Below, piece by piece: positions 2,948 to 43,198 of a stretch of DNA of 44,460 nucleotides. How positions within the stretch are numbered: position 1 is the stretch's first letter; the number at the start of each line of letters is the position of its first letter. The stretch comes from Syntrophomonadaceae bacterium (GTDB lineage Bacteria > Bacillota > Syntrophomonadia > Syntrophomonadales > Syntrophomonadaceae): positions 1-44,460 of the forward strand of contig JAISWS010000132.1 of assembly GCA_031270725.1 (NCBI GenBank), given 5' to 3'. Below the pieces are notes generated by a model that saw only the letters and a program-made list of their open reading frames with translations, made no database searches and was not told the DNA's origin. The position numbers and the translations under genes are program-made.

Positions 2948-3454
2948 ATGTTTGACAAAGAACAACCGGCGGCCCCGGAATTAATCGAGAAAGTTGTTAA
3001 TATACGGAGAGTGGCAAAAGTTGTTAAAGGCGGCCGTAGATTCAGCTTCAGCGCTTTGGTAGTGGTGGGGGACGGCCAGGGGAAGGTTGGCACCGGGAAA
3101 GGCAAAGCCAATGAAGTGCCGGAATCCATCCGTAAAGCGATGGAAAATGCGAAAAAGAACATGAAGGAGATTCCGTTGATTGATGAAAGAACTATCCCTC
3201 ATCAGATTATTGGACGCTTTGGAGCGGGAGCGGTTCTGCTGAAGCCGGCTTCCCCAGGTACCGGAGTTATTGCCGGAGGGCCGGTGCGCGCAGTATTGGA
3301 AGCCGCGGGGGTAAAGGATATATTAACTAAATCATTGGGATCTTCCAACTCAAATAACATGGTACACGCTACCATGCAAGGACTGAATAGTTTGAAACGT
3401 ATTGAAGATGTAGCCCGGCAACGCGGTAAAACTGTTGACGAAATAATTTATTAG
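2948..3454 (+). CDS. rpsE: 30S ribosomal protein S5
   Basis: [37 protein letters not shown] is the S5 signature. Confidence 0.97.
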
Positions 3455-3465
3455 GAGGGAGATCG

Positions 3466-3651
3466 TTGGCCAAGCAATTAAAGATCACTTGGACTAAAAG
3501 TTTTATTGGTTATCCTTCCACACAAAGAGCGACTATTAAGAGCTTAGGGCTTAGGAAGCTTAATCAAACAGTAATTAGAGAAGACAGCGCTCAGTTGAGA
3601 GGGCAAATAAATAAAGTTAACCATCTTCTGACAGTGGAAGAAATGGATTAG
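3466..3651 (+). CDS. rpmD: 50S ribosomal protein L30
   Basis: TTG start, 61 aa, LKITWTKSFIG....QRATIKSLGLRKLN. Confidence 0.95.
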   Translation: MAKQLKITWTKSFIGYPSTQRATIKSLGLRKLNQTVIREDSAQLRGQINKVNHLLTVEEMD

Positions 3652-3666
3652 CAGGGAGGTTTGTTG

Positions 3667-4110
3667 ATGAAACTGCACGAATTGAAATCTCCGGCCGGAG
3701 CGACAAAAAACATTAAAAGAGTAGGCCGGGGGACCGGCTCTGGTTCTGGTAAGACTTCCACCCGGGGACATAAAGGGCAAAAGGCGAGATCCGGCGGCGG
3801 AACCAGATTGGGTTTTGAAGGCGGGCAGATGCCTTTACAAAGGCGTATTCCCAAACGCGGGTTTAGCAATAGCGTGTTTAAGAAAGAGTATGCTATAGTC
3901 AATGTTGAAGATTTAAATAGTTTTGACAATGGAACTGAGATTACTTTAGACTTGCTGCGCGGGGCGGGGCTGGTTAAGAAAAAACTCAATGGGCTAAAAA
4001 TTTTAGGTCAGGGTGAGTTGGAAAAACAGCTCACGGTCAAAACACATAAAATCAGCCGCCAGGCAGAAGAAAAAATACTTGCCGCCGGGGGCAAAGTAGA
4101 GGTGGTTTAA
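3667..4110 (+). CDS. rplO: 50S ribosomal protein L15
   Basis: ATG 3667 lies 7 nt after AGGGAGG and gives [14 protein letters not shown]. The track ORF starts two codons earlier at TTG 3661. A Gly/Arg-rich loop is present. Confidence 0.95.
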
Positions 4111-5376
4111 ATGGTAAATCCTTTGCAGCAGGCTTTAAAAGTAGGGGATTTAAGAAGAAAATTACTGTTTACTTTATTCATGCTGCTGATATTCAGAATA
4201 GGGGCGCATGTTCCGGTTCCGGGTATTGACGCGTCCAAAATACAAGAAATGCTGTCAGGGCAGTTGTTTGGGTTTTTTGACGTAATATCGGGAGGAGCGT
4301 TTAAAAGGTTTACGGTTTTTGCTATGAGTATCACTCCGTATATTAACGCTTCTATCATAATGAATTTGTTGCAGGTAATTGTTCCTAAGCTGGATAGTCT
4401 AGCTAAAGAAGGCGAAGAAGGCCGGAAAAAAATTGCTCAGTATGTGCGCTATGGTACGGTGGTATTAGCTTTTATACAGGCTATCGGTTTAGCTTATGCT
4501 TTAGGGCGGAACGGCGCTTTAGCCAGCAGGAACATAGGGTCTTATCTGATGATAGCCATAGCCTTAACAGCCGGAACCGCGTTTTTGATGTGGATTGGCG
4601 AGCAGATTACTGAAAAAGGCATTGGCAACGGAATATCATTGCTGATATTTGCCGGCATTGTCTCCAGGCTGCCATCGCAGATAAGCGGAGTGGGGCAGGA
4701 GTTAACCGGCGGTATTGTAAGCGGATTTAATATAGCGCTGTTTATATTGATTGCTTTGTTTATAATATGCGGTATTATCGTGGTTAATGAAGGGCAGAGA
4801 AGGATTCCCATACAGTACGCCAAAAGAGTCGTAGGGAGAAAAGTATACGGAGGCCAAAGCACCTTCTTACCTTTAAAAGTTAATACGGCCGGAGTTATTC
4901 CAATAATTTTCGCTATGTCCATTTTAATGTTCCCGGCGACTATTACGCAGTTTATGGATCAAAATTCCAAATTCAGCATGTTTATCGCACAATATTTTAA
5001 TGGCGGAGGGGTAGTATATAATTTATTGTATGCGGTATTGATTGTATTTTTCACTTATTTCTATGTCGCCATAATTTTCAATCCGGCTGATGTGGCCGAA
5101 AATATAAAAAAGTATGGCGGTTTTATACATGGTATCAGGCCGGGAAGACCGACAGCGGATTACATTGACAGAGTGCTTTCCCGTCTGACCTTATCCGGCG
5201 GAATTTTTTTAGCAATAATTGCGGTGCTGCCTAATTTTGTAATCGGGCTGACCGGAGTAACGAGCTTCTATTTCGGCGGGACTTCTTTGCTTATAGTGGT
5301 TGGAGTTGCCTTAGATACCATGAAACAGATAGAATCTAACTTGTTGCTCAGAAGTTATGAAGGATTTGTAAAATGA
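4111..5376 (+). CDS. secY: preprotein translocase subunit SecY
   Basis: 421 aa with multiple TM segments. The LLFTL..L.IFRIGAHVPVPGID N-terminus and the position after rplO fit SecY. Confidence 0.97.
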   Translation: MVNPLQQALKVGDLRRKLLFTLFMLLIFRIGAHVPVPGIDASKIQEMLSGQLFGFFDVISGGAFKRFTVFAMSITPYINASIIMNLLQVIVPKLDSLAKEGEEGRKKIAQYVRYGTVVLAFIQAIGLAYALGRNGALASRNIGSYLMIAIALTAGTAFLMWIGEQITEKGIGNGISLLIFAGIVSRLPSQISGVGQELTGGIVSGFNIALFILIALFIICGIIVVNEGQRRIPIQYAKRVVGRKVYGGQSTFLPLKVNTAGVIPIIFAMSILMFPATITQFMDQNSKFSMFIAQYFNGGGVVYNLLYAVLIVFFTYFYVAIIFNPADVAENIKKYGGFIHGIRPGRPTADYIDRVLSRLTLSGGIFLAIIAVLPNFVIGLTGVTSFYFGGTSLLIVVGVALDTMKQIESNLLLRSYEGFVK

Positions 5377-6883: not shown

Positions 6884-7249
6884 ATGGCCAGAATAGCGGG
6901 AGTTGATTTGCCCAGAGATAAAAGAGTTGAGGTCTCGTTGACTTATATATATGGAATAGGACGTTCGGCGGCTCAAAAGATTTTGCTCGAAGCAGGTATA
7001 AATTTTGACACAAGAGTGAAGGATTTAACAGAGGAAGAAGTTGCCAGATTAAGAGATGTTATAGAAAAGAACCATACGGTGGAAGGGGATTTACGCCGTC
7101 AAGTAAGTATGGATATCAAGCGGCTGATGGATTTAGGATGCTACAGAGGTATCCGACATCGCCGGGGTCTTCCGGTGCGGGGGCAGAATACTAAAAATAA
7201 TGCCCGTACCCGTAAAGGACCGAAACGGGTAGCAGGTAAGAAAAAGTAG
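6884..7249 (+). CDS. rpsM: 30S ribosomal protein S13
   Basis: [26 protein letters not shown] is canonical S13. Confidence 0.97.
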
Positions 7250-7262
7250 GAGGAATGCATAA

Positions 7263-7655
7263 GTGGCACGTAGAACGACTACGAGGATAAAACGCCGTGA
7301 AAAAAAGAATATAGAACACGGAGTCGCTCATATTAAGTCAACCTTTAACAATACGATCATTTCCATAACGGATACGCATGGCAATGCTATTTCCTGGGCA
7401 AGTGCGGGCACCTCCGGATTTAAAGGGTCCAGAAAAAGCACTCCTTATGCCGCTCAGCAAGCGGCGGAAAGTGCGGCTAAATCAGCAATGGAACATGGAC
7501 TGAAAGAGGTTGAATGTTTTGTGAAAGGTCCTGGCGCCGGACGCGAGGCGGCGATTCGGTCGCTGCAGGCAGCTGGTCTTGAAGTAAGTGTAATTAAGGA
7601 TGTTACGCCCATTCCGCATAACGGATGCAGACCACCGAAAAGAAGAAGAGTTTAA
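7263..7655 (+). CDS. rpsK: 30S ribosomal protein S11
   Basis: GTG start. [20 protein letters not shown] and the [14 protein letters not shown]-terminus are S11 features. Confidence 0.97.
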
Positions 7656-7671
7656 GGAGGGAATTAGTTAA

Positions 7672-8301
7672 GTGGGAAGGTATACAGATTCAGTATGTCG
7701 CCAGTGCCGCCGTGAAGGGGAAAAGCTTTTTCTAAAAGGAGACCGCTGTTATTCAGATAAATGCGCAATTGAAAAAAAACCTTATATTCCCGGTGTACAT
7801 GGTAAAGCCAGAAGGGCGAAAGCTACCGAATATGGAATTCAATTAAGGGAAAAACAAAAAACCAAAAGGATTTACGGCGTTTTGGAAAAGCAATTCCGTA
7901 ATTATTTTAAAAAGGCTGACAGTATTCAAGGCATTACGGGGGAAAACCTTTTAGTATTACTGGAAAGGCGCCTTGATAACGTAGTTTACCGTTTAGGACT
8001 GGCTTCATCAAGAAAAGAAGCCCGCCAGCTGGTGAACCATGGGCATTTTACGATAAACGGGCATAAAGCGACGATCCCTTCTATGTTAATTAGAGTGGGA
8101 GATATTGTACAAGTGAAAAACAAAAGTTTGGAATCAAATAAATTTAAAGAAATCAGGGAGCAAGCTACTTATAAAACGCCGCCGGAATGGATGAACGTAG
8201 ATTTGGACAATATGGCCGGACATATTATCGCTTATCCTTTAAGAGAACAAATTGATACCTTGGTTAATGAACAACTCATTGTTGAGCTTTATTCAAGATA
8301 A
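7672..8301 (+). CDS. rpsD: 30S ribosomal protein S4 (Cys4 zinc finger form)
   Basis: GTG start. [23 protein letters not shown] is present, along with an S4 RNA-binding domain. Confidence 0.97.
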
Positions 8302-8338
8302 ATAAGTAACCTCTATAGAATAAGGAGGGATTCTATTA

Positions 8339-9289
8339 ATGCTAGAGATGGAAAAACCCCGGATTGAATGTGTAGAAAAAAAATTAGACGATAATTACGG
8401 GAAGTTTATTATTGAACCCCTGGAAAGAGGCTATGGTACTACTCTGGGTAATTCTTTGCGCAGGGTATTGCTGTCTTCGCTTCCGGGCGCAGCTGTTACG
8501 TCTATTAAAATTGATGGGGTTTTGCATGAATTTTCCACTATTCCTAATGTGGTAGAAGATACTACCGAAATAATTTTGAATATAAAAAAGATGGTCATAA
8601 AATACGGGGGAACAGAACGTAAAATTATAAGACTGGAACATGCGGGACCGATGGAATTGACTGCCGCCGATATAACTCCTGACGCGGAAGTAGATATTTT
8701 AAACCCTGATTTGCATATTGCCACTTTGGACGAAGATGCCAAAATTTATGTGGAAATGACGGTAGAGCGGGGCCGAGGCTATGTAAGCGCCGATCAGCAG
8801 CCATATAAAAATGATGATCTCGTGGGACAGATTCCTATAGATTCCATATTTACGCCGGTTAATCGGGTGAATTTTGTGGTGGATAACGCTAGAGTCGGGA
8901 AAAGAACCGATTATGACAGTTTAACTTTGGAAGTTTGGACCAATGGCAGCGTCAGTCCGGAAGAAGCGGTGAGCCTTTCCGCTCAGGTGTTGATTGAGTA
9001 CTTAAAGCTTTTTACTGAAATAGATGATACTTGTACTCAGGTAGAACTTTTAGCGGAAAAAGAGGAAGAAAAGAAAGACAAAGTTTTGGAAATGCTGATA
9101 GAAGAACTGGAACTTTCGGTTCGCGCCTCCAACGGCTTAAAAAGAGCCAGCATTAATTCAGTAGGGGATTTAATAGAAAAAAGCCGTGAGGAAATGGGTA
9201 AAATCAGAAATTTAGGACAAAAATCGCTGGAAGAAATAGAAAGAAAACTTATGGAATTAGGTTTAGCGTTTAAAAAACTGGAGGATTAG
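8339..9289 (+). CDS. rpoA: DNA-directed RNA polymerase subunit alpha
   Basis: [24 protein letters not shown], and a C-terminal domain [19 protein letters not shown]. Confidence 0.97.
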
Positions 9290-15002: not shown

Positions 15003-15110
15003 TATATGTAAATTATTTACCAAAGCTCTTTGTTTTTTTACTGGATTAGTGCTTTTAGAGTAACAAAACTCTGGTTTTTTAATACCGTATATAGTAAGAA
15101 CGGAAAGGAG

Positions 15111-15917
15111 ATGGTAGGAGTGGCTGATGTAACTCTTAATACTGTCCGGGAAGCGTACATTTCTCAATATTATCCTAATCAGAATTTTGGAAGCCCCCCG
15201 AGATTGTTTGCTGGCAGTTTCAAGCAAACATGCGGTGATATTTATCGCAGTTTGCTTGAATTTGATATGAGAGGACGTAAAGGCTGGAATACAAGCGGGT
15301 GTGGATGCCGTCATAAATACAGACATGAAGAAAGACACTGGCGCCACGACCATGACGATGACTGTGGCTGCGGAGGACACGGCTGGCGCCATGACCATGA
15401 CGATGACTGCGGCTGCGGAGGACACGGCTGGCGCCACGGCCATGACGATGACTGTGACTGCGATGAGCATGATAAGGGGAAGGGTTCAGGCAATCTGTGT
15501 GCCAAATGCATAGACACGGCCGTCTTGAAATTAACTTTGAGACGCAATGAAATACCGGTGAACGACTGCATAACGTTAAAAGTATATATGATTAATTCCC
15601 GCTGGGATGACGACAGGGTGAACTGGAAAAATCAACCTTCGGTATTTAGACGTTGTATAGGTTCAGAAAGCATCAATTCCGGGCTGGGAACAGTGAATAT
15701 TGATATTACCAGAGCTGTTGAAAATTGGTGCGCGTCCGGCGGCAGGTCTCCTTTCAGTATAATGATAGAAGGGGAAGAGGATTGCCTGCGCCTGGTGGGA
15801 TTTGCTTCCAGCTGTGACGCCACAGCCAGTGCGCGCCCGGCGATAGATATAACTTACAACGATTCTGAAGACTGCGGCTGTGCCAAAAATTTCGACTGTG
15901 ACTGTGATTGTGATTGA
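15111..15917 (+). CDS. DNRLRE-like domain protein with a His/Asp/Cys/Gly-rich tandem-repeat insert and a DCDCDCD tail
   Basis: ATG 15111 abuts AAGGAG; an in-frame GTG at 15120 is the alternative start. The flanks resemble the DNRLRE-type domain: YISQYYPNQNFGSPPRL...LLEFD, and LKVYMINSRWDDDRVNWKNQP. No signal peptide is present. Confidence 0.7.
   Translation: MVGVADVTLNTVREAYISQYYPNQNFGSPPRLFAGSFKQTCGDIYRSLLEFDMRGRKGWNTSGCGCRHKYRHEERHWRHDHDDDCGCGGHGWRHDHDDDCGCGGHGWRHGHDDDCDCDEHDKGKGSGNLCAKCIDTAVLKLTLRRNEIPVNDCITLKVYMINSRWDDDRVNWKNQPSVFRRCIGSESINSGLGTVNIDITRAVENWCASGGRSPFSIMIEGEEDCLRLVGFASSCDATASARPAIDITYNDSEDCGCAKNFDCDCDCD
15339..15473 (+). repeat. 3 x 45-nt in-frame tandem repeat (WRHDHDDDCGCGGHG units)
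   Basis: Units start at 15339, 15384 and 15429. Units 1 and 2 differ at only 2 nt, and both changes are synonymous (CAC/CAT, TGT/TGC). Unit 3 differs from unit 1 at 9 nt. Confidence 0.95.
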
Positions 15918-16164: not shown

Positions 16165-16188
16165 AAAAAGCGTCCTACCATTTGACGC
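16165..16188 (-). terminator. rho-independent terminator closing the minus-strand cluster
   Basis: The minus strand reads GCGTC-AAATGGTAG-GACGC followed by TTTTT. It lies about 100 nt downstream of the stop at 16291. Confidence 0.45.
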
Positions 16189-16290
16189 TTCAAATCCTCC
16201 CATGTTAACACGCTTTTAAAACATTTTTGAAAACAGGTTCTTAATGTATTCTGTCAGCCAATTACATAAGGCTTTGTCTTTTGCTGTTTT

Positions 16291-16728
16291 TTATTTTTCC
16301 GGTTCCAGGTTTTTTAATATTAATTTAAAGGCTTTTTTCAGAAACATAGCGTCCTTGTAAAAAGAATTAAGCCGCCCTATTTTTACCCCATTCAAATAAA
16401 CGTAATTTATAACCAACCAGTTGCGTATTTTAAAGGATTTGATTTTAGTTAATTTTACGCAGCCCGATGAAGTCAAAACCGCGGGATAACGGCCCAGCCT
16501 GTAATAAAGCCGCTGGTCAGTTATGAATATCCATCGGGCATTGCCCGTTTCAGCGTTACCTTTGCTAAATAGCAGGGGCGCTTCATTATCAGGCTCATAT
16601 TCAGGGAAATCATTTTTTACCAGACCAATGTATTCTTCACTGACGTTGGGATATAATTCCGTATCTCTAAGGTACGGCTTTTCGCTTTTTAACCGCTCAA
16701 TTATTTGCGGCAGTTTTTGGTTTAACAT
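16291..16728 (-). CDS. hypothetical cytoplasmic protein, 145 aa
   Basis: Clean ORF that follows the 72-aa membrane ORF by 26 nt. I cannot name a family; the core WIFITDQRLYYRL...IKSFKI may be PH/GRAM-like. Confidence 0.55.
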   Translation of the reverse strand: MLNQKLPQIIERLKSEKPYLRDTELYPNVSEEYIGLVKNDFPEYEPDNEAPLLFSKGNAETGNARWIFITDQRLYYRLGRYPAVLTSSGCVKLTKIKSFKIRNWLVINYVYLNGVKIGRLNSFYKDAMFLKKAFKLILKNLEPEK

Positions 16729-16754
16729 TTTATCCGCCCATCTTTGGATGATAA

Positions 16755-16973
16755 CTATCGAAATAAAACATTTTTAAGCCACAATAAAGCAAGTATTATT
16801 GTAATAGATATTAAAACTAAAATATATTTTTCCCAAAATTTTTCTGGAATCCAGCCAAAAGACAAATCATTATAAAATTTAGCCATTTTACGAAATCTGC
16901 GACTAGTAAGCTGATAAAATAATACTGCTATAAAGATTACAATAAATGTTACTTCTATCCATTTATTATCCAT
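16755..16973 (-). CDS. small membrane protein with two TM segments, 72 aa
   Basis: GGAG lies 10 nt upstream of the ATG. The two hydrophobic helices are IEVTFIVIFIAVLFY and ILVLISITIILALLWL. Confidence 0.5.
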   Translation of the reverse strand: MDNKWIEVTFIVIFIAVLFYQLTSRRFRKMAKFYNDLSFGWIPEKFWEKYILVLISITIILALLWLKNVLFR

Positions 16974-17019
16974 AATCTATCATCTCCAAAAACGTATGTT
17001 AAGCACATTTGAGGTTATA

Positions 17020-17086
17020 TTTGAATGGTTTTTTATTATTTTAACATGGCGTCAATGTTTTCATCAGTAAATTCATACCAGATAAC
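17020..17086 (-). repeat. copy A of the near-identical gene 3' end (including 16 nt beyond the stop codon)
   Basis: 66 of 67 nt are identical to 18712-18778. It encodes ...VIWYEFTDENIDAMLK*. Confidence 0.9.
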
Positions 17087-18085
17087 ATCTTCTTTTGCTT
17101 CCTGCTCTTTTCCAAACGTACGATATATATCTTCTGACACCGGCTCTTCATCAATATAAAATATATTACTGTGTTTCCCTTCTTCATCAATGCTGTAGGA
17201 AAATTCTCCAAGTTTTATTAATTCATATTTTTCTTGTAAAACTGGAAATATCAGCCGGCCATATCCACCAGTAACGTCGCTGGTTGAAAAATCAAATGTT
17301 CCATCTGTTTTTAGATTTTTTATGCCTACAATTGGAAAACAATAGCCAAGAACGGTGCCATATTCATAATGTAAAACTTCTATTTGCTCAAGTAGGTCCA
17401 ATAAGATTTCCGGATACCCGTCCCCATCCAGGTCAACTACTGCAAATTTGAATACTTTCCAAGGTTCATTACGATGATTTCCACGTTCATAATCAAATTC
17501 ATTTAAATATTTATAAGAATGTTCTTCAGTGCTAACAAGTTCCAACTGGCTTTTCAATACCAACCAATAAGCCTGTTGGTCCTGATTATTTTCGAAATAA
17601 TCCATTATAATTTCAGGTGATGGTTCACCTTTTTTAATCATTTTAAAATATTCGCCCGGGATTTTGTATTTTGGAATATCCGTTTCAATCGCTCCCCATA
17701 CAGTTATTAATTGCGGCTGTTTTTCAAATCTTATTAAAAGCTCTCCTTTTTCATATGTCGCAAATTTATGATCCGGCAAATATTTATCAAAAATTAAATT
17801 TATCTGGTTTTTATCCCCATGTACTTTTGCTTGTAGCCTTGTAAGCGACTGATAGCCGTCAATGTTAATTTTTGCATAGTAGCCGCCGTCTTTTTTATAA
17901 ATAGTTATTCCCAAAAAACGGTTTACTCCTACTTTAATATGCTCAGTAAGCGCATAGTAACCAACCCACGATTTTAGTTCATCTTCTTTTAGGGTATAAT
18001 TTTTTATTATAAAGCCCGAAAAAATAAGAAGCGTTATTATAATGCCGCCAACGACGAATATTTTTTTACGTTTATCTTCGCCCAT
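17036..18085 (-). CDS. membrane-anchored protein: N-terminal TM, a domain of about 150 aa, and one copy of the DLDGDG / ...YEFTDENIDAMLK module
   Basis: ATG 18085 lies 7 nt after AGGAG; the track ORF begins at TTG 18103. The TM segment is IFVVGGIIITLLIFSGFII. The C-terminal half is paralogous to both halves of 18728-20137. Confidence 0.8.
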   Translation of the reverse strand: MGEDKRKKIFVVGGIIITLLIFSGFIIKNYTLKEDELKSWVGYYALTEHIKVGVNRFLGITIYKKDGGYYAKINIDGYQSLTRLQAKVHGDKNQINLIFDKYLPDHKFATYEKGELLIRFEKQPQLITVWGAIETDIPKYKIPGEYFKMIKKGEPSPEIIMDYFENNQDQQAYWLVLKSQLELVSTEEHSYKYLNEFDYERGNHRNEPWKVFKFAVVDLDGDGYPEILLDLLEQIEVLHYEYGTVLGYCFPIVGIKNLKTDGTFDFSTSDVTGGYGRLIFPVLQEKYELIKLGEFSYSIDEEGKHSNIFYIDEEPVSEDIYRTFGKEQEAKEDVIWYEFTDENIDAMLK

Positions 18086-18202
18086 AGCTTTCTCTCCTGT
18101 CAATTATAAGTTTAGGCAGCGTCTGCATAAAGTCAGAAGATGGGAAACCAAATTCAACTGGCTTGAGAAAGAACCTAATTTATTCGGCTCCGCTCCGAGG
18201 TA

Positions 18203-18440
18203 TTAATCAACCCTGTTTAGCTCATAAAATCCAATAAACTGGTATACTTCGCCAACCCACAGCATTAAAGTATCATCATTGCGTATAACTATGCCTATAG
18301 GCATTAGTAAATACTATTTTGCTGGAATTGGGATTGTATTCTAGATTGCCAACAGGATTGGAGTTTTCATATGTATGCTGCTGGCAGCCCGCCAAAAACA
18401 GGGTACTTATTAATAACAATTTTAATGCGATGTTTCTCAT
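18203..18440 (-). pseudogene. small lipoprotein gene interrupted by a frameshift
   Basis: MRNIALKLLLISTLFLAGCQQHTYENSNP... (lipobox LAGC) hits TGA after 54 codons. The +1 frame then continues ...PIGIVIRNDDTLMLWVGEVYQFIGFYELNRVD* to 18203. The total of 238 nt is not a multiple of 3. Confidence 0.45.
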
Positions 18441-18465
18441 AATTGTCTCCAATTAATGTCTGCTG

Positions 18466-18609
18466 TTATAAATACCATACAAAAACATGTTTATATCTGC
18501 ATTTAAAAGTGGCCGCTTCCGCGTTATTGATTTGTGGATGATTATTATTAATATTGCTCAAAAAAGCTGCCATTGCCGCACTTATGATGAAAATCACCAA
18601 ATATTTCAT
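18466..18609 (-). CDS. possible 47-aa secreted or membrane peptide
   Basis: MKYLVIFIISAAMAAFLSNI... is signal-peptide-like. The RBS is weak (GGGG, 10 nt upstream). This call has low support. Confidence 0.25.
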   Translation of the reverse strand: MKYLVIFIISAAMAAFLSNINNNHPQINNAEAATFKCRYKHVFVWYL

Positions 18610-18711
18610 AACTGGATAACCCCTTTCAGCCCTAAATTTGTTTGTGCAAACTGGTGTAAATATTTTGGGCGTACTGAATCCGGGTATCAAGGTTAGGAGT
18701 TTTATACAAAT

Positions 18712-18778
18712 TTTGAATAGTTTTTTATTATTTTAACATGGCGTCAATGTTTTCATCAGTAAATTCATACCAGATAAC
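18712..18778 (-). repeat. copy B of the near-identical gene 3' end
   Basis: See copy A. The single mismatch is at 18719 (17027 in copy A). Confidence 0.9.
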
Positions 18779-20137
18779 GTCTTCTTTTTCGTCTTGCCCT
18801 TCAACAAAAGTACGAAAATCTTCTTCTGAAACCCGTCTGTCCGCAATGTAAAATAATATTTCATATTTGCTTTTACCGTCTACGCTGATGCGGGATACGG
18901 ATTCTACCAGTTTTATGTATTCATAATTGTTCTTTGAAAACATCAGCCGGGCAAATCCGCCAGCAGCGGCGCTGCTTGCAAAATTAAAAGTTCCGTCCGT
19001 TTTTAAGCGCTTGAGTCCTCTATACGGGAAAAAATAACCATAAACAGTACCTTTTTCATAATGCAAAACTTCTACTTGATCGAATAATTCCAATAAAACT
19101 TCCGGATTTTTGTCCCCATCCAGATCAGCTACGGCAAATCTCAACACTTCCCAAGGCTTATCAAGGTGATCGCCGTGCTTATAATCAAATTCGTTTAAAT
19201 ATTTATAAGCATTTTCTTCGGAGCTGAAAAATTGTGATTGGCTTTTCAATACCGACCAATAAGTCCGTTTAGCTTGATTATTTTCAAAAATCGCCGGGAT
19301 TGGTTTTTCTGTTTCCGGGGCGGGTTCATTTTTAACAAGGCCATTACTGATATTGTTTTCTTTTAACATGGCGTCAATATTTTCGTCAGTAAATTCATAC
19401 CAGATAACATTTTCTTTTGCTGCCTGCTCTTTTTCAAACGTGCTGTATACATCTTTCGTCACTTGGTTTTCAGCAATATAAAATACATTGCTATATTTGC
19501 CTTCTTCATCGCTTTCCCAGGAATATTTCCCCAGTTTTATTAATTCGTATTTTTCTTCTGAGAAGATAAGCTGCCCGTATCCAGCAATAACAGATTTGTC
19601 AGCAGTATCACCTAAAAAATAAAAAGTTCCGTCTGTTTTCAGATTTTTCATGCTTCCCATTGGAAGGCAGTAACCATAAACGGTGCCGTCATTTTTATAA
19701 TGTAAAACCTCTACTTCGTATAATAATTCCAATAAAATTTCCGGATGCCCGTCCCCATCCAGGTCAACTACGGCAAATTGGAATACTTCCCAAGGCTGGT
19801 CTCGGTAGCCTCCTTTTGTATGGACACTCCTATAGTCATAGTCATAATCATAGCCATAATCATATTGATAATCAAATTCGTTTAAATATTTATAAGAATT
19901 TTCCTCGGTGCTGAAAAATTCTATATAACTTTTCACCGCTGACCAGTAAGCCCGCTTGGCCTGGCTATCTTTGAAAGGCACTAAAACAGGTTTCTCCGCC
20001 TCATGTATATTGTTTTCCGTTTTTAACGGTTCATCATTAACAGAGCCATTGTTATTATTCGCGGCATCTGCGCATCCCGTTAAAGCCAGGATAATAGTAA
20101 GGCAAAAGAGCGCCATAATTTTATTGATTTTTCCCAT
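18728..20137 (-). CDS. lipoprotein with two tandem copies of the module of about 190 aa (DLDGDGxPE motif, each ending VIWYEFTDENIDAMLK)
   Basis: Signal peptide plus lipobox: MGKINKIMALFCLTIILALTGC. There is an internal duplication, with module 1 at about 19364-20000 and module 2 at 18728 to about 19330. Confidence 0.85.
   Translation of the reverse strand: MGKINKIMALFCLTIILALTGCADAANNNNGSVNDEPLKTENNIHEAEKPVLVPFKDSQAKRAYWSAVKSYIEFFSTEENSYKYLNEFDYQYDYGYDYDYDYRSVHTKGGYRDQPWEVFQFAVVDLDGDGHPEILLELLYEVEVLHYKNDGTVYGYCLPMGSMKNLKTDGTFYFLGDTADKSVIAGYGQLIFSEEKYELIKLGKYSWESDEEGKYSNVFYIAENQVTKDVYSTFEKEQAAKENVIWYEFTDENIDAMLKENNISNGLVKNEPAPETEKPIPAIFENNQAKRTYWSVLKSQSQFFSSEENAYKYLNEFDYKHGDHLDKPWEVLRFAVADLDGDKNPEVLLELFDQVEVLHYEKGTVYGYFFPYRGLKRLKTDGTFNFASSAAAGGFARLMFSKNNYEYIKLVESVSRISVDGKSKYEILFYIADRRVSEEDFRTFVEGQDEKEDVIWYEFTDENIDAMLK
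19361..19408 (-). repeat. copy C (internal) of the conserved module end
   Basis: 46 of 48 nt are identical to 17039-17086. It is in-frame inside the lipoprotein gene. Confidence 0.85.
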
Positions 20138-20176
20138 TCACATCACGCCTGTCATTCAGATTTTAAAAGTTATGTC

Positions 20177-20545
20177 CTAATTATTATATCTTGCCTTAAT
20201 TGCCTCAGCATAATCAACGCGATCTCTAAGCGCCCCTTCAGTTTTATCGTCAGGATTTTCATATCCAGCCATAATTACCCAAGTGGCATCATTGATATTC
20301 TGCGATTGTAACAGTTTTTGCCAATCATCATAAAATTCCCTATTTTTCGTGGTCAATTCTAAATACATAAATTCCAATTGGGTATTGAGATCCCCTAAAT
20401 AATTTGTTCCTTTGGTCGCCGCGTATATTTCTAAGCCCGATTTTCTTGAAAAGTGAGTCCACTGTATAATTCCCCAGCCGACGCCATCGTTTATGTTATA
20501 AGTTGTTGTCATAAAAGTATTGCATGGTTTTGCTACTTTCCGCAT
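20177..20545 (-). pseudogene. N-terminally truncated phage-tail-tip-lysozyme-like (cell-wall hydrolase) domain
   Basis: GVGWGIIQWTHFSRKSGL...GDLNTQLEFMYLEL...AGYENP resembles the C-terminal two-thirds of the family I recall as Phage_lysozyme2. The usual N-terminal part is absent and no RBS is evident. It may still be expressed from an internal Met. Confidence 0.5.
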
Positions 20546-20698: not shown

Positions 20699-21502
20699 CT
20701 AAGTATATAAATCTCTTTTTCTGTAAAAGGCTACCGTGAAATACGCCGCCATGCTTACAACGGCCATTGCAAGCAACAGATAAAGCAGGCTAATCCCATT
20801 TTGCGCCACCATTGGCCCATTGAAATACCACACCGGCGAAAGAAACCCAAGAAAATCAACCGTTTCGCTATATTCAATGATGAAGGCCACAAGGTAAGAA
20901 AATATCAATACGATAAACGCAGTGCGCGAGGCCGTTTTATTGCTTTTGAAAAGGGCCGCGCACTGCATCCCTACAACCAAAAAGATGAGTTGCGTAAAAA
21001 GCATTCCAGCCGATGTGATGATCACTTGGGGCAAAAGCGCCATCCCTCCAAATAAAGGCAATATGAACGCAACGGAGCCAATACAGGCCGTAAGTGTGAG
21101 CACCAGTATGCTCACCAATGCCGCAAGCATTTTTGACAGTATAACCGTACTGCGGGTATAGGGCTTGGTGTACAAAAATTCGCCTGTCTTAAATCGTTCT
21201 TCTTTCGTGATAGTATGAACGCCCAACCATGTAGCGAATGGAAACGTAATCAGGCAAAACCAATAGTACATACACGCATAACCGCCCAAATCAGTATTGA
21301 GGGGAAGCGCGTCAACACCAAACATAATGCGTACAATGCGGGGAATATCCGCTACTGTAGTGGCTATCACATCCATAGAATCTTGCAAAGAAACAAATTC
21401 CACAGCGCCAAACGCGGCGGCCAGCAGCATCAGTGCAGAGCAGATGATTAGTGTTCTGCGACCAAGTTTTAATTCCTTCAAAAAAATCGTTTTCATTTTC
21501 AT
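20699..21502 (-). CDS. ABC-2 type exporter permease (second)
   Basis: 267 aa with about 6 TM segments. It follows the first permease by 10 nt. Confidence 0.8.
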   Translation of the reverse strand: MKMKTIFLKELKLGRRTLIICSALMLLAAAFGAVEFVSLQDSMDVIATTVADIPRIVRIMFGVDALPLNTDLGGYACMYYWFCLITFPFATWLGVHTITKEERFKTGEFLYTKPYTRSTVILSKMLAALVSILVLTLTACIGSVAFILPLFGGMALLPQVIITSAGMLFTQLIFLVVGMQCAALFKSNKTASRTAFIVLIFSYLVAFIIEYSETVDFLGFLSPVWYFNGPMVAQNGISLLYLLLAMAVVSMAAYFTVAFYRKRDLYT

Positions 21503-21512
21503 TATCCCCCTT

Positions 21513-22319
21513 CTAACGTATCACGACATCTTTTTTTCGGTAAATGAAGCTCCCTACAAGGGTGAAGGCTATTACCAAGAAAATCAACCACACCACATAC
21601 CGCATATCATAGCCGCCCATATCAGCCACGATAGAGCCGCCAAAGTATTTTGGGGGCGATAAAAAGATTAAGATATCCGCGCCGGTTACCTGTGCCATAG
21701 TGCCTATGATGATGGTGATAAATAGGGTAATCACCGAAGTAAAGATGGATTTTCGGATTTTTGGCAATATTGTTCCCAAGAAAAAGCCAAACGACATGAA
21801 CAGGACGCTATTCAAAATAATTGAACAGGCCAACAACACGAATAGCTTGAAGTCAAATCCGGCGGCAAAGATATTCAATGACACGAGCGACGCAAGGAAA
21901 TATGCGACCCCAATACTCAAAACTGCCACAGCCGCCGCGAACAGCTTTGAGATGAATATTTTTGTGCGATTGTGGGGCTTTGTCAAAAGGAAATCCGCCG
22001 TTCCCTGCATATACTCCTTTGTGTGGATTGACAGACCGATGTGCATGGCAATGACCGCAAGCGCAAGCCCGAAAAACCAACCTGTCAAAAAGCCGTACAT
22101 ACCGATGGGCTTTGATAGAAATTCGGCGCTGATATCCACCGCCTGTAAAAAGCTGTTACCATCCACTGTTGCCAGCGTTTCTGTGCGCGCACTCCCATCA
22201 GGGTTCGTGGTAATACTTATATAAGGCGGCAGTAAACAGAACAGCAGAACCGAAAAGGCAATCACGCCTCCCAGTATTAGCCCACGCATTTGCCGCAGTT
22301 CATATTTGAAAATAGCCAT
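21513..22319 (-). CDS. ABC-2 type exporter permease (first)
   Basis: ATG 22319 lies 6 nt after AGGAGG and gives MAIFKYELRQMRG. The track ORF extension overlaps the ATPase. The protein is polytopic. Confidence 0.8.
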   Translation of the reverse strand: MAIFKYELRQMRGLILGGVIAFSVLLFCLLPPYISITTNPDGSARTETLATVDGNSFLQAVDISAEFLSKPIGMYGFLTGWFFGLALAVIAMHIGLSIHTKEYMQGTADFLLTKPHNRTKIFISKLFAAAVAVLSIGVAYFLASLVSLNIFAAGFDFKLFVLLACSIILNSVLFMSFGFFLGTILPKIRKSIFTSVITLFITIIIGTMAQVTGADILIFLSPPKYFGGSIVADMGGYDMRYVVWLIFLVIAFTLVGSFIYRKKDVVIR

Positions 22320-22329
22320 ACCGCACCTC

Positions 22330-23211
22330 CTACTTGTAATAATGCAGGAAAATTTCTTCCAGCGTTGGTTCTTCAATGAAAACATCGCTTACCGGCAAAT
22401 TATGCAGCTTGCCGAGTATATCGCCCACTTTTCCCATAAACAGGAATGAGGCGCCGGCGCCGTCCTCGTTATAGCTTGCGATACCGGGCATATCGAAATA
22501 CTCTTGCGGAATTGATTGTTCCGTGGTGAGCGCAATCTTTTTATATCCGTTTTTACGCAAGTCGCTGATCTTCTGTATGTTGATAATTTGCCCCTCTTTG
22601 ATGATCGCCACCCTGCCGCAGATCTTTTGCACCTCGCTGAGTACATGGGAAGAAAAGAGAATGGTTGCGCCCTTTTGGTTTTCTTCCCGGAGTATGTCAA
22701 AAAAGGTTTGCTGCACCAGTGGGTCAAGGCCGCTTGTGGGTTCGTCCAAGATAATCAGTTTGGGGGAATGAAGCAGCGCGGCCACGATACCAACCTTCTT
22801 TTTATTGCCAAAAGAGAGGTCGGAAATCTTGCGGCTTGTATCAAGGTTCAGGCGCTCGGCAAGCTCTTTGATTCGTCCGTCAACCTTTTTCCCGTACAGG
22901 GCCGCCGCGTAGCTGAGAAATTCCCGTACCTTCATATTTTCGTAATAGCTGCTTTCGCTGGGCAGATATCCCACATCCTTTGCTATCTCCGCCGCCTGTG
23001 CGATGCAGTCCTTTCCCCAAATGGCAGCCTTGCCCGAAGTGGGGTGGATAAGCGCAAGCAAGGTGCGTATGGTGGTGGACTTGCCCGCTCCATTGGGGCC
23101 GATGAAGCCGTATATTTCGCCTTCCTCCACCGTAAAATTCACATCCACAATCCCTCTGAATGCGCCATAATTTTTTTTGAGATTGGTGATTTCAATAACT
23201 GTGCCGCTCAT
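22330..23211 (-). CDS. ABC transporter ATP-binding protein
   Basis: Walker A is GPNGAGKST, Walker B is IILDEPTSGLD, and the signature is degenerate (LSFGNKKK). The start overlaps the tetR stop (ATGA). Confidence 0.9.
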   Translation of the reverse strand: MSGTVIEITNLKKNYGAFRGIVDVNFTVEEGEIYGFIGPNGAGKSTTIRTLLALIHPTSGKAAIWGKDCIAQAAEIAKDVGYLPSESSYYENMKVREFLSYAAALYGKKVDGRIKELAERLNLDTSRKISDLSFGNKKKVGIVAALLHSPKLIILDEPTSGLDPLVQQTFFDILREENQKGATILFSSHVLSEVQKICGRVAIIKEGQIINIQKISDLRKNGYKKIALTTEQSIPQEYFDMPGIASYNEDGAGASFLFMGKVGDILGKLHNLPVSDVFIEEPTLEEIFLHYYK

Positions 23212-23825
23212 AGGTATTCCCCCTTATAAAAATTGTTTTTCATAAAATCGAGGCATTTGTAGAAATCCGCCATATGTACATCAAGATCTTCCGCGCTAAC
23301 GCCCATAGGCATCGTGTTGACCAGCCCTTCAGAAGCCCAGGTCAACAATTTCAGCAACAGCGCAGGGTCAGCGCCGTCCTTGAATTTTGTCAGGTCTACC
23401 CCCTCAATCATCATTCCCTGTGTGGAAGCGACACCCGCCGAGGTCGTCTTTTTTATCTCGCTTTCAACCTCCGGATCGGTTTCAAAGAACACATTTCGCA
23501 GAAATGACAGAAGGGCCGGATGCTGCTTCATCACAGATATCTGAATTTCGGTTGTCAGTTTTAGCTTGTCGAAAAAATCCGTGACGTTTTTATCAAGCCG
23601 CTTTTCCATTTCGCCAGTCAGAAGTTTCCCGCAAAACTCAATCAGATAAAAATACAAGTCTTTTTTGCTGCCAAAGTAGTGAAATATCATTCCTTTTGAT
23701 ATGCCTGCGGCTACGGCAATATCACCGGCAGATGCTTTTCGGTACACATTCCGCCCAAAGACGGTAAGCGCCCCGTCTATGATGCGCTTTTGCTTTTCAG
23801 GCGGAAGGGCAAAAAACTTTTCCAT
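23208..23825 (-). CDS. TetR/AcrR family transcriptional regulator
   Basis: ATG 23825 lies 8 nt after GGAGG. The HTH is ASAGDIAVAAGISKGMIFHYFGSKKDLY. Confidence 0.88.
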   Translation of the reverse strand: MEKFFALPPEKQKRIIDGALTVFGRNVYRKASAGDIAVAAGISKGMIFHYFGSKKDLYFYLIEFCGKLLTGEMEKRLDKNVTDFFDKLKLTTEIQISVMKQHPALLSFLRNVFFETDPEVESEIKKTTSAGVASTQGMMIEGVDLTKFKDGADPALLLKLLTWASEGLVNTMPMGVSAEDLDVHMADFYKCLDFMKNNFYKGEYL

Positions 23826-23843
23826 ACGCAACACCTCCAAAAT

Positions 23844-23895
23844 AATAAACCGATTCGGTTTATTGCAGAATATCATAATAAACCTAATTGGTCAA
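23844..23895 (-). promoter_or_regulatory. tetR-ABC promoter with a 21-bp perfect palindromic operator
   Basis: On the minus strand: TTGACC (23895-23890), a 17-nt spacer, then TATTCT (23872-23867). The palindrome AATAAACCGA-T-TCGGTTTATT (23844-23864) lies between the -10 element and the RBS. Confidence 0.6.
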
Positions 23896-23964
23896 TGGGT
23901 GTGCAAAAATATTTTCCACAAAAAATATGAATTATTCAGTGTTCAATAAATGCGTATCACATAA

Positions 23965-24110
23965 TTCCATCAACAGCAGATGGACGAATTAATCCAACAG
24001 CTATGGGAGGGGAAATATAAGCCCACCCAGTCCGGCGGGTAGAGATACCCAAGGAAGAAAAGGGAAAAGTCAGGAAACTGGGAATCCCTACCTGCTTCGG
24101 GCGCGCCTGA
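23965..24110 (+). pseudogene. relic of a group II intron reverse transcriptase/maturase (about 40 N-terminal codons, frameshifted)
   Basis: ...DELIQQLWEGKYKPTQ, then after a frameshift VRRVEIPKEEKGKVRKLGIPT. This matches the ..G.Y.P.PVRRVEIPK..G..R.LGIPT motif of intron-encoded proteins. Nothing RT-like follows. Confidence 0.65.
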
Positions 24111-24297
24111 AACCGTCCCGCCTTTCGGCGTGACATTTCATCCTTTGCTCATTTCAACAAATCCAGATTTGTTGAATAAAGAAGCGTAAAAAATAATTAA
24201 AGGTTATGTCCAACTGCGGTCAGACATAACCCTTGCAATATTATACTGCTGTTCCGTTGTCAAGGTCGGGTAGTATTTTTTTTGAAACCATATCTTT

Positions 24298-24341
24298 AAA
24301 AAAATCTCCACCCTTAACCTTGACAAGGTGAGTGCGGAGAT
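24298..24341 (-). terminator. rho-independent terminator after the PIN/small-protein operon
   Basis: The minus strand reads ATCTCCGCAC...GGGTGGAGAT (an imperfect stem; ATCTCC/GGAGAT are perfect), followed by TTTTTTT (24304-24298). Confidence 0.55.
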
Positions 24342-24357
24342 GATTTGTAGGATTAAG

Positions 24358-24564
24358 TTATTGCTTTGCCAGTCCTGCCATAATGTCGGCAGTTGTAATG
24401 TCCTTTAATAATTCTTTCTGTTCTTCGGTATAATTTCCTTCACCTGTTTCATACTGCCTAAGAAAGTATGCCATACCAACTGGAGTTAAGGCTTTGGAAA
24501 GAGCTTCAATGCCCATTTTCCGAAGCGCAACAGGATTTCTAAAATCTATCGCTTGATTCATCAT
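24358..24564 (-). CDS. small acidic partner protein of the PIN gene (putative antitoxin), 68 aa
   Basis: Its ATG overlaps the PIN TGA (ATGA at 24564-24561) and GGAGG lies 4 nt upstream. The sequence is MMNQAIDF...MAYFLRQYETGEGNYTEEQKELL. Confidence 0.7.
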   Translation of the reverse strand: MMNQAIDFRNPVALRKMGIEALSKALTPVGMAYFLRQYETGEGNYTEEQKELLKDITTADIMAGLAKQ

Positions 24565-24995
24565 AACACCTCCGCAACCCAATTCAATGGATTTTCAACT
24601 TTTACTTTTAATGATATTTTGCTTGACAGCTTAATGAGCTTATCATCCGTAGTCAGAAATATGTCAGTTCCGGCACTTTCTGCACAGGCAATATGAAAAC
24701 TGTCCAATGGTTTTATCCCTATCTGTTGAATTTCAACTGCTCTTTTCTCAATTTCAGCTGTTACCAAAACCCTTTCACTTGCTATACTGCATAGCTCCAT
24801 GACCTTCTCTTTTTTCGCTGGGTTTGTCATTTTGCTTACTTCAAAATCAATTATATTGCTTCCAATCAAAGTCCAGCCACCTTTATGGCAATGGTTCAAA
24901 ATTGATAAAACCACTTCGGCTTCTAAATATATTCTGTCTTGCTCCTGATTATCAAAAGGGCGGTTATATGAACAAACATCCATATATATCTTCAT
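24561..24995 (-). CDS. PIN-domain ribonuclease-like protein (putative toxin), 144 aa
   Basis: ATG 24995 gives MKIYMDVCSYNRPFDNQ. The conserved acidic PIN positions are YMD, LEAE, PLDSFH and LTTDD. The track ORF extends upstream through the promoter. Confidence 0.8.
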   Translation of the reverse strand: MKIYMDVCSYNRPFDNQEQDRIYLEAEVVLSILNHCHKGGWTLIGSNIIDFEVSKMTNPAKKEKVMELCSIASERVLVTAEIEKRAVEIQQIGIKPLDSFHIACAESAGTDIFLTTDDKLIKLSSKISLKVKVENPLNWVAEVL

Positions 24996-25019
24996 TGGCA
25001 ACACCTCAAATTTAATATT

Positions 25020-25048
25020 ATTGTATGCCAAATTTACAGAAAAATCAA
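25020..25048 (-). promoter_or_regulatory. sigma-A-type promoter of the PIN operon
   Basis: On the minus strand: TTGATT (25048-25043), a 17-nt spacer, then TACAAT (25025-20). It lies about 25 nt upstream of the ATG. Confidence 0.55.
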
Positions 25049-25434
25049 TGTGTTTTTCAATCAATGTGGTTAGTCCCGTTTTCCACAAACAGCAGCGGTA
25101 TTTCCTTTTCCGGGTCATAGTCAGCGTAAACTTTCCGGACATGCTCCATGCGCTCAGGTTTTATGAAGCGGGAGATTTTTCAAAATCATGCGGACAATTT
25201 TTTAAGCGGGGCAAACGCCCGAAATTAGCTGAGAACGGAGAGATGAGGGCTGAAAGTGCCAAGAGGCAATCTAAAGACTTTTCGATTCATAATGAAGTTA
25301 ATCTCCGTTAACTAAAAATAAAAAGAGACAGGAGGCAATGTAAATGACCGTAAAATTAAAAATGCGGGCAACATAACAGCAAAAATGCTATTCAGAAAAA
25401 AATCAGAAAAATATTTTAAAAGGATAGTGGGAGA

Positions 25435-42022: not shown

Positions 42023-43195
42023 ATGAAGGTATATGCTGATAATGCAGCGACGACAGTTGTCAGTAAGGAAGTTGTGAACGCTATGCTGCCTTGCTTTACC
42101 AAAATATATGGGAACCCTTCCAGTGTCCATACTATAGGGCAAGAGGCGGCCATAGAGCTGGAAAATGCGCGCAGTACAATAGGAAAATGGCTTAATGCTG
42201 AACCCAGAGAAATATTTTTTACTTCAGGAGGAACCGAAGCGGATAACTGGGCTATCCAAAATGCCGCCGCTATTGGCGCTAAAAAGAATAAACGTCATAT
42301 AATTTCCAGTAGATTCGAGCATCATGCGGTGTTGCACACTTTGAACAAACTGGAAAAACAAGGTTTCGAAATACAGTTGCTGGAAGTTTACAATGACGGA
42401 TTGGTCAGGCCCGAGGATTTACAATCGGCGTTAAGGGAAGATACAGCCTTGGTAACCATTATGTACGCCAATAATGAAATAGGCACCGTCCAGCCTATTT
42501 CACAGCTGGGTAAAATATGCCGCGATCATGGGGTTATTTTTCATACGGACGCGGTTCAGGCAGTAGGACATGTGCCGATAGACGTTAAAGAAGAGTTTAT
42601 TGACTTGCTTTCACTTTCAGCCCATAAGTTTCACGGACCTAAAGGAGTAGGGGCCTTGTACTGCCGTAAAGGGCTTCCGCTGAATGTTTTTATTGAAGGC
42701 GGAGCGCAGGAACGGGGAAAACGGGGCGGGACCGAAAATATTCCTTCTATCGTAGGGATGGCGGTAGCTTTGGAACAAATAAGCCGTAACATGGAGCGGA
42801 ACAGCGATAAAGTTTTTGCTTTGCATAACACTTTGATTGAGGCTTTAAGCGCTATACCCCGCAGCCGTTTAAACGGCAGCAGAGAAAAAAGGCTGCCGGG
42901 GATTGTTAATTTTTGCTTTGAAGGGATTGAAGGAGAAGCTATGCTTTTGATGCTGGATGCGTTGGGTATATGCGCTTCGTCAGGCTCCGCCTGCACTTCG
43001 GGCTCCTTAGATCCCAGCCATGTACTCCTGGCCCTGGGGCTGCCTCATGAAATAGCACATGGTTCTTTACGAATGTCGTTTAGCGAGTATAATAATAAAG
43101 AGGAAGTAGATTATATTATTGAAAAATTGCCGCCGATAATTCAACGACTGCGTAGTATGTCGCCGGTGTGGGAAAAAATTGAAAGGGGAGAATAA
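42023..43195 (+). CDS. nifS: cysteine desulfurase (NifS/IscS type)
   Basis: ATG 42023 lies 8 nt after GGAGG. The PLP-Lys context is [12 protein letters not shown] and the active-site Cys context is SSGSACTSG. Confidence 0.93.
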
Positions 43196-43198
43196 CCT

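Follow-up and report, generated by a model that had tools for sequence, protein, structure and literature searches.

In BlaR1, a penicillin-binding sensor domain lies C-terminal to a Peptidase_M56 (M56) domain, and signalling proceeds via BlaI. The BlaR1/MecR1 transducers are among the closest described systems to the locus reported here; the others are the FG-GAP/VCBS propeller repeats (PF01839, PF13517), as in the blades of YesW and YesX, the lysozyme inhibitors and immunity lipoproteins (LprI, PliI, MliC/PliC, and those of type VI and type IV secretion systems (T6SS, T4SS)), and the phage endolysins with an N-terminal Phage_lysozyme2 domain, such as gp31 of Faecalibacterium phage FP_Lagaffe. 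The locus is a cluster of seven open reading frames (ORFs) at 16291-20545 in a 44,460-nucleotide (nt) stretch of DNA from a Syntrophomonadaceae bacterium (GenBank assembly GCA_031270725.1, contig JAISWS010000132.1, positions 1 to 44,460 of the forward strand; the whole of this stretch is called the window), and its principal element is a domain of about 180 amino acids (aa), called the module, which is present three times. The module belongs with extracytoplasmic domains of the lipoprotein or sensor type that have an FG-GAP-type loop, and the locus itself is ordinary. Judged by profile searches, the module family is large, undescribed, absent from domain databases and not lineage-specific. The preferred reading of the locus, held with moderate confidence, is an AT-rich chromosomal island in which one undescribed extracytoplasmic domain of a binding or sensor type has undergone paralog expansion in the company of gene debris.

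The ORF table and the sequence contain all seven of the minus-strand ORFs listed in an earlier note on this DNA, running from 20545 to 16291 with intergenic gaps of 13-190 nt. The features of the island are as follows.

20177-20545, minus strand: probable phage-type lysozyme remnant, 122 aa (Phage_lysozyme2 match in Pfam)
18728-20137, minus strand: two-module lipoprotein, 469 aa (P0004), with lipobox LTGC at residues 19-22 (...ILALTGC) (ORF and profile search)
19361-19966, minus strand: module copy 1, residues ~58-259 of the 469-aa protein, with a YDYGYDYDYDY insertion (sequence comparison)
18731-19288, minus strand: module copy 2, residues ~284-469 of the 469-aa protein (sequence comparison)
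18466-18609, minus strand: 47-aa ORF from ATG (74 aa from an upstream TTG), with a signal-peptide-like N-terminus (ORF table)
18276-18452, minus strand: 58-aa ORF with lipoprotein signal ...LFLAGC (ORF table)
17036-18103, minus strand: transmembrane (TM)-anchored protein, 355 aa (349 aa, P0005, if the ATG at 18085 is used)
about 17675-17974, minus strand: DUF5991 domain of the 355-aa protein (Pfam)
17039-17578, minus strand: module copy 3, in the 355-aa protein (sequence comparison)
16755-16973, minus strand: 72-aa protein (p72) with two hydrophobic spans (ORF table)
16291-16728, minus strand: 145-aa protein without a signal peptide (ORF table)
16165-16191, minus strand: terminator-like hairpin with an 8-bp stem, a 9-nt loop and a U-run, ~100 nt past the last gene (minimum free energy fold)

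The three copies of the module, ~180 aa each, have 57-67% mutual amino acid identity. When the two large proteins are searched against the window by tblastn, they find the other copies with E values of 1e-63 to 1e-70 and 57-59% identity, and the module profile matches the 469-aa protein in two stretches with an E value of 1.9e-170. Repeat families in the DNA join 17026-17597, 18718-19289 and 19348-19976 with nucleotide identities of 69-82%. By these measures the triplication that had first been noticed in the translations is far beyond chance. Among the three copies and the module of the closest relative described below, the synonymous divergence (dS) is 0.7-1.1, about equal for all, and the ratio of nonsynonymous to synonymous divergence (dN/dS) is 0.25-0.35, from which the copies are judged to have been kept under purifying selection. 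The last 16 residues are identical in all three copies (VIWYEFTDENIDAMLK) and differ in the ortholog on the closest related contig (VTWYEFTDENIDALLR); they correspond to the segments 17026-17086, 18718-18778 and 19348-19408 at the 3' ends of the copies, and the DNA similarity runs ~10 nt beyond the stop codon in both copies that close a gene. Because the C-terminal 16 residues are identical and the DNA similarity continues past the stop codons, there is a hint of gene conversion at the 3' ends of the module copies.

An exhaustive profile search over 1.84 billion representatives places the module family in 2,438 representative clusters at E<=1e-3, 1,461 at E<=1e-10 and 250 at E<=1e-30. The 47 module loci found in species representatives of GTDB belong mostly to Oscillospiraceae, Lachnospiraceae and other Clostridia and have 26-41% identity to the window; a distribution of this breadth contradicts the proposal that the cluster is specific to one lineage. 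An ultra-rare family had been suggested by a word-index search with a single module, which returned three relatives, and this idea was overturned by the exhaustive search. Architectures were counted in the best 148 non-window representatives of the 2,438. Lipoprotein-type N-termini are present in 104 of these (~70%), 55 with the strict lipobox pattern and 49 with a relaxed pattern; the module is single in 131 and lies at the extreme C-terminus in 117, and the median length is 281 aa. The proteins of the window conform to this pattern: the lipobox sequence [LVI][ASTVI][GAS]C is present in the 469-aa protein and in the 58-aa ORF, for both of which lipidation is predicted, and the 355-aa protein has a TM anchor, so that the description of these products as envelope or extracytoplasmic proteins stands. 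Tandem pairs of module genes are found elsewhere too (7059-9029 of locus L005 and 3121-5005 of locus L009), as are proteins with up to four to seven modules (P0013, 1,684 aa); therefore local multiplication recurs in the family.

The module had been left unassigned on inspection of the translations, and hidden Markov model, profile and structure searches agree. No model of Pfam or NCBIfam covers it, with just short FG-GAP loop matches in the 75 larger relatives; PADLOC has nothing for it, PHROGs gives only weak matches for the module proteins, and Foldseek finds no cover for it in the PDB. A profile search of annotated databases recovered 40 proteins, among them CSTERTH_00815 of Thermoclostridium stercorarium, all of them 'hypothetical protein' or unnamed and none with a Pfam domain in the module. 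An exact-sequence look-up of the 469-aa protein returned no record, and a literature search on BlaR1, M56, FG-GAP and lipoproteins yielded nothing pertinent.

A module model made by AlphaFold (AF2) from six sequences is mediocre (predicted local distance difference test (pLDDT) 75), and the model made with a 30-sequence alignment is confident (pLDDT 92.5, predicted TM-score (pTM) 0.87). The predicted fold is mostly beta: a helix at the N-terminus leads into a short hairpin and then a variable loop, after which come about nine more strands and a closing pair of helices. When the confident model was compared by Foldseek with the PDB and BFVD, no neighbour was found (the best PDB match has an E value of 9e-3, a TM-score of about 0.2 and a root-mean-square deviation of 13 A), and judged against these two collections the predicted fold is provisionally new. 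The variable loop is where module copy 1 has its YDYGYDYDYDY insertion, encoded by a 12-nt coding microsatellite (19832-19874, minus strand, 3.6 copies); model confidence is lower at this site, and the ortholog on the closest related contig has a different Tyr/Asp-rich insert.

The near-invariant positions of the module are D49, D51, D53 and E57, which form a loop, together with G78-Y79, K90-x-D92-G93, K162 and W167. The loop is what the module shares with FG-GAP/VCBS propeller repeats, namely a strand, a DxDxDGxxE loop and a strand ('FAVVDLDGDGYPEILL'), and the likeness of the DLDGDGxPE motif to such loops, suspected from the translations alone, is borne out by short Pfam matches and by similarity to YesW/YesX. 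When the profile is compared with PDB sequences, the sole similarity is a stretch of ~30 residues (profile positions ~41-72) to the DxDxDG motif found in blades of YesW and YesX, both PL11 propellers, with an E value of 1.4e-3. The 469-aa protein scores 23.1 bits against FG-GAP (cutoff 22.1) over a 16-residue stretch and 25.4 bits against FG-GAP_3 (cutoff 26.9); the 355-aa protein scores 17.5 and 17.2 bits, respectively, both under the cutoff. The difference from a propeller is that the motif occurs once per 180-aa module, in a match of 15-21 residues without consecutive repeats, and that the remainder of the module has neither repeats nor a propeller match; Foldseek matches of the module models to propellers have TM-scores of 0.2-0.3, and among PDB structures no propeller neighbour of the confident model exceeds 0.25. 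The motif suggests that the DxDxDGxxE loop of the module probably binds calcium.

The history of the cluster can be approached through one related 1.6-kb metagenome contig (L001), which has 72% nucleotide identity to the window and carries a 4HBT thioesterase gene, a gene for a single-module lipoprotein (P0001) and then a homolog of the 72-aa protein. P0001 is orthologous to the signal peptide and first module of the 469-aa protein, and the 72-aa homolog, directly downstream of P0001, was identified by phmmer (E value 3.4e-7) and by blastn (76% identity over 68 nt). The ancestral unit was probably a single-module lipoprotein followed by the two-TM 72-aa protein. Because L001 carries this pair and all of the modules are about equally diverged, the arrangement in the window would have come about by old internal and tandem duplication, together with a domain fusion, acting on an ancestral pair of lipoprotein and p72. 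The other genes have no such continuity. When all cluster proteins of the window were compared by phmmer with the ORFs of 50 related loci, the 72-aa homolog was the sole match; across 47 genome loci, 5 annotated contexts and 5 viral contigs, no module is accompanied by the 145-aa protein, a DUF5991 domain or the lysozyme fragment; and each of five lipoprotein-type relatives on long contigs has a Pfam context of its own. The view of the cluster as a system thus survives in one particular, that the 72-aa protein follows a module gene in L001 as well, and falls in the rest because homologs show no conserved co-occurrence of these genes, an outcome that the earlier note itself had named as refuting. 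On the evidence of the neighbourhoods, the seven genes form a local accumulation of ancient duplicates and decayed genes, not a conserved multi-gene system; the lysozyme fragment and the 58-aa ORF, and perhaps the 47-aa ORF too, would be remnants and not working parts.

The function of the module may be approached through its larger relatives. Peptidase_M56 is present in 16 of 75 of them, with the module C-terminal to it, in the position that the sensor domain holds in BlaR1/MecR1 transducers; it is present also in P0003, one of the three word-index relatives, where it is of the BlaR1 type. Among the genes within four positions of module genes on either side, all-versus-all clustering found one family in 8 loci, the BlaI-type repressors, directly upstream of the module gene, as well as, in 3-4 loci, small groups comprising genes for sigma factors and putative anti-sigma factors. 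Pfam assignments of the 130 neighbours within two positions agree (Penicillinase_R, 8; Peptidase_M56, 4; sigma-70/extracytoplasmic function (ECF) sigma factors, 3-4). The module differs from the class D beta-lactamase-like sensor domain of BlaR1/MecR1, to which it has no sequence or structural similarity, and both features, the M56 domain and the BlaI gene, are found in a subset of relatives and not in the window, where the proteins have no M56 match and where tblastn with the BlaI, M56 and ECF sequences of related loci gave no matches. A binding or sensing role is suggested because the module is C-terminal in BlaR1-type M56 proteins, with BlaI genes adjacent and a few ECF sigma genes nearby. 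The modules would face outward from the cytoplasmic membrane, held there by a lipid anchor in the 469-aa protein and by a TM helix in the 355-aa protein with its DUF5991 fusion, each as a probably calcium-stabilised domain that may bind or sense a ligand or partner from the envelope or the environment. In the M56 relatives, binding of the ligand might be passed to the M56 protease and hence to the repressor, by analogy with the BlaR1/BlaI pathway. Stand-alone lipoproteins such as that of the window might be tethered binders of the same ligand; the window has no M56/BlaI transducer, and therefore its modules would act as tethered binding proteins. A wider proposal, put forward only as a possibility and rather less likely than the preferred reading of the locus, is that the module, as a calcium-stabilised domain of novel structure, senses a ligand and feeds many envelope pathways of the BlaI/BlaR1 and ECF types in Clostridia of the gut and of digesters, while the abundant free lipoproteins, the three copies of the window included, capture, present or sequester the same signal.

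Several points weigh against these interpretations. Most members of the family are stand-alone lipoproteins with unrelated neighbours, for which the role of a sensor accessory fits no better than several other roles. The case for a binding or sensor role is made entirely from the position of the module in M56 proteins and from gene neighbourhoods, and that for calcium binding from the motif. The duplication history is reconstructed from one short (1.6 kb) related contig, which is the sole source of synteny with a close relative because a metagenome scan with the 355-aa protein gave one distant match.

The significance of the module does not depend on the locus, the importance of which is low because the cluster gives no sign of being a new system. 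A family of thousands of proteins in gut-associated and anaerobic-digester Clostridia is without any annotation, and the same domain forms the outward end of BlaR1-type proteins. Were the domain defined by a Pfam-style model, a structure and a ligand, many 'hypothetical lipoproteins' would acquire a name, and the signals to which a set of BlaI/M56 regulons in Clostridia responds could come to light.

The first alternative to an island of duplicated modules and debris is that the cluster is the decayed end of a prophage, a lysis-proximal 'moron' region in which the stump of an endolysin gene is followed by lipoprotein and membrane-protein cargo, for example for superinfection exclusion. It is suggested by the 122-aa ORF, which matches Phage_lysozyme2 (PF18013) with an E value of 4.4e-15 (56.5 bits, cutoff 28.2) over profile positions 40-137 of 140, short of a complete domain, so that the description of this product as a truncated tail-lysozyme-like domain is upheld. 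PHROGs likewise gives an endolysin match, and the annotated relatives are endolysins of Clostridia phages only, with 29-31% identity; a word index of 5.8 billion proteins, a viral scan, plasmids and the PDB contain no close homolog, only distant phage endolysins. Residues 19-114 align with residues 73-164 of the 527-aa FP_Lagaffe endolysin (30% identity, E value 1e-13), in which Phage_lysozyme2 at 8-170 is followed by Amidase_2 and SPOR domains. The 122-aa ORF corresponds to the C-terminal two-thirds of the first domain; it has no Amidase_2 or SPOR domain, and ~65 residues are missing from its start, among them the GN..ES motif ('GNLFAESG' in the endolysin), which presumably carries the glutamate expected to be catalytic in lysozyme-like folds. 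The 153 nt upstream of it lead straight into an ABC permease gene. Because the N-terminal region with the GN..ES motif is gone, the ORF is probably an inactive remnant of a phage-type endolysin domain and not an enzyme or a functional partner of the module proteins. A phage origin of the whole island would also account for its base composition: five 1-kb windows between 16 and 21 kb have G+C fractions of 0.335-0.385, compared to 0.37-0.49 elsewhere, the lowest stretch of the contig, which bears out the AT-richness first seen in spot counts. However, the lipoprotein gene of L001 is equally AT-rich (G+C 35.7%, compared to 44% in the neighbouring gene) and yet adjoins a housekeeping-type thioesterase gene. 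The island shows no sign of further phage genes, of an integrase or tRNA gene, or of att-like repeats, and no endolysin homolog lies near the module in any related locus examined. Module genes do occur on viral contigs, on one plasmid and beside phage-tail-like genes, but only occasionally: they are on just 5 of 2.9 million viral contigs (IMG/VR) and in 1 of 50,697 phage records, a metagenomic phage fragment. With this balance, a prophage end is an unlikely origin for the cluster. On one set of viral contigs (L062-L064) the module lipoprotein is cargo of an element that also encodes a large serine recombinase and a PemK/MazF-like protein. In Lacrimispora (L033, L028, L043, L060) the phage-tail-like genes adjoin the gene for a module lipoprotein of ~400 aa that has an unassigned extension at its C-terminus.

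A second alternative, no less doubtful, is an island of immunity or inhibitor proteins, in which the module lipoproteins would inhibit lysozyme-like peptidoglycan hydrolases, either as immunity to a secreted toxin of which the 122-aa ORF is an orphaned fragment or as general inhibitors multiplied by an arms race. The lipoprotein is located where wall hydrolases act, and the lysozyme-domain fragment lies 39 nt upstream of its gene on the same strand. Like LprI, PliI and MliC/PliC and the immunity lipoproteins of T6SS and T4SS, module proteins are small, membrane-tethered and extracytoplasmic, and among the 75 larger relatives, besides a few with SH3_3 or LRR_5, the module is fused to LprI in 2, PliI in 1 and Tli3 in 1, as separate domains (P0145 consists of a lipoprotein signal, a module and LprI). 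The tandem paralogs of L005 and L009 would suit such multiplication, and in T. stercorarium the next gene but one encodes a SleB-type Hydrolase_2 protein. Nevertheless, the module itself matches none of LprI, PliI, MliC/PliC or PliG in Pfam, NCBIfam or Foldseek against the PDB, and no lysozyme, toxin or secretion gene recurs among the 130 neighbours within two positions of module genes in the 47 genome loci, nor in the 5 annotated contexts and 5 viral contigs. The closest relative has a thioesterase gene upstream and no lysozyme; the relatives of the fragment are phage endolysins and not polymorphic toxins, and the fragment has no trafficking domain; and dN/dS of 0.25-0.35 gives overall no sign of diversifying selection. 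A structural lead towards immunity proteins, a match to the T4SS-related Xanthomonas protein 4qtq (E value 0.07, TM-score 0.30), came from the pLDDT-75 model and vanished with the pLDDT-92.5 model. A polymorphic toxin/immunity cassette is not recognised either, as the upstream ORF here is a stump without its N-terminal region and no pairing with a toxin or hydrolase is conserved. The suggested link of the cluster to a wall hydrolase, which is not conserved among homologs and is represented here by a gene fragment, is therefore not sustained.

The last alternative, a true envelope operon in which all seven products form a lineage-specific surface system tied to wall remodelling, would explain why the genes share a strand, short gaps and one terminator-like hairpin at the end, and why p72 stays with the lipoprotein in L001, but it is very improbable, as co-occurrence fails for every gene except p72, two or three ORFs out of the seven have the appearance of remnants, and the 145-aa protein and lysozyme fragment have no detectable close relatives.

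The hairpin just mentioned had been proposed as a terminator at 16165-16188. As a structure it is plausible, with an 8-bp stem and a U-run, but in comparison with shuffled sequences it is not distinctive (z -1.2); a consensus terminator scan passed over it because the 9-nt loop exceeds 8 nt.

The remaining genes of the island differ in how far they can be assigned. The N-terminal domain of the 355-aa protein, taken as unassigned when the ORF was read from 18085 to 17036, turns out to be DUF5991 (PF19453), with an E value of 8e-19 and 68.6-70.6 bits, above the gathering threshold of 24.3, over profile positions 2-107 of 122. The 145-aa protein has a match to the bacterial PH domain bPH_3 (PF14470) with an E value of 0.0025 and 18.7 bits, below the cutoff of 23; it has no relatives in the metagenome scan and is a singleton in clustering, and it stands as an orphan. 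An apparent similarity of this protein to 43121-43294 is noise, as it falls across an ordinary NifS/IscU gene pair. The 47-aa ORF has no family match; it has a strong ribosome-binding site and a tail rich in Cys and aromatic residues (...ATFKCRYKHVFVWYL), and may either encode a small secreted peptide or be a remnant. The 58-aa ORF and the 190 nt downstream of it contain, in all frames, no family match and no recognisable coding remnant, and an attempt to tie them to DUF5991 failed. The 'frameshifted lipoprotein' that had been supposed here is not substantiated; it remains a guess because the 58-aa ORF cannot be extended into a recognisable protein, and the ORF may be a truncated or orphan lipoprotein start.

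The flanks of the island are ordinary chromosome. Directly upstream (20699-25142, minus strand) are genes for a TetR regulator and an ABC-2 exporter (an ATPase and two permeases), followed at 24561-25142 by one for a PIN-domain protein; no tie of these to the module genes was seen. At gathering threshold, Rfam identified no RNA family in the whole 44 kb, its ribosomal-protein operons notwithstanding. The source organism has been sampled very sparsely; RpoA and several other proteins of the window, which is an entire contig, are singletons when clustered at 90% identity. The other flank contains rplM, rpsI, a CwlD-like Amidase_3 gene and, beside the latter, a gene for a DNRLRE/CBM96-domain protein (15030-15917, plus strand). 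A 45-nt tandem repeat in this gene (15338-15462, 2.8 copies, 92% match) encodes the His/Asp/Cys-rich unit WRHDHDDDCGCGGHG, which ends in CDCDCD and resembles a low-complexity, metal-binding insertion; the protein itself may be associated with the spore or the wall.

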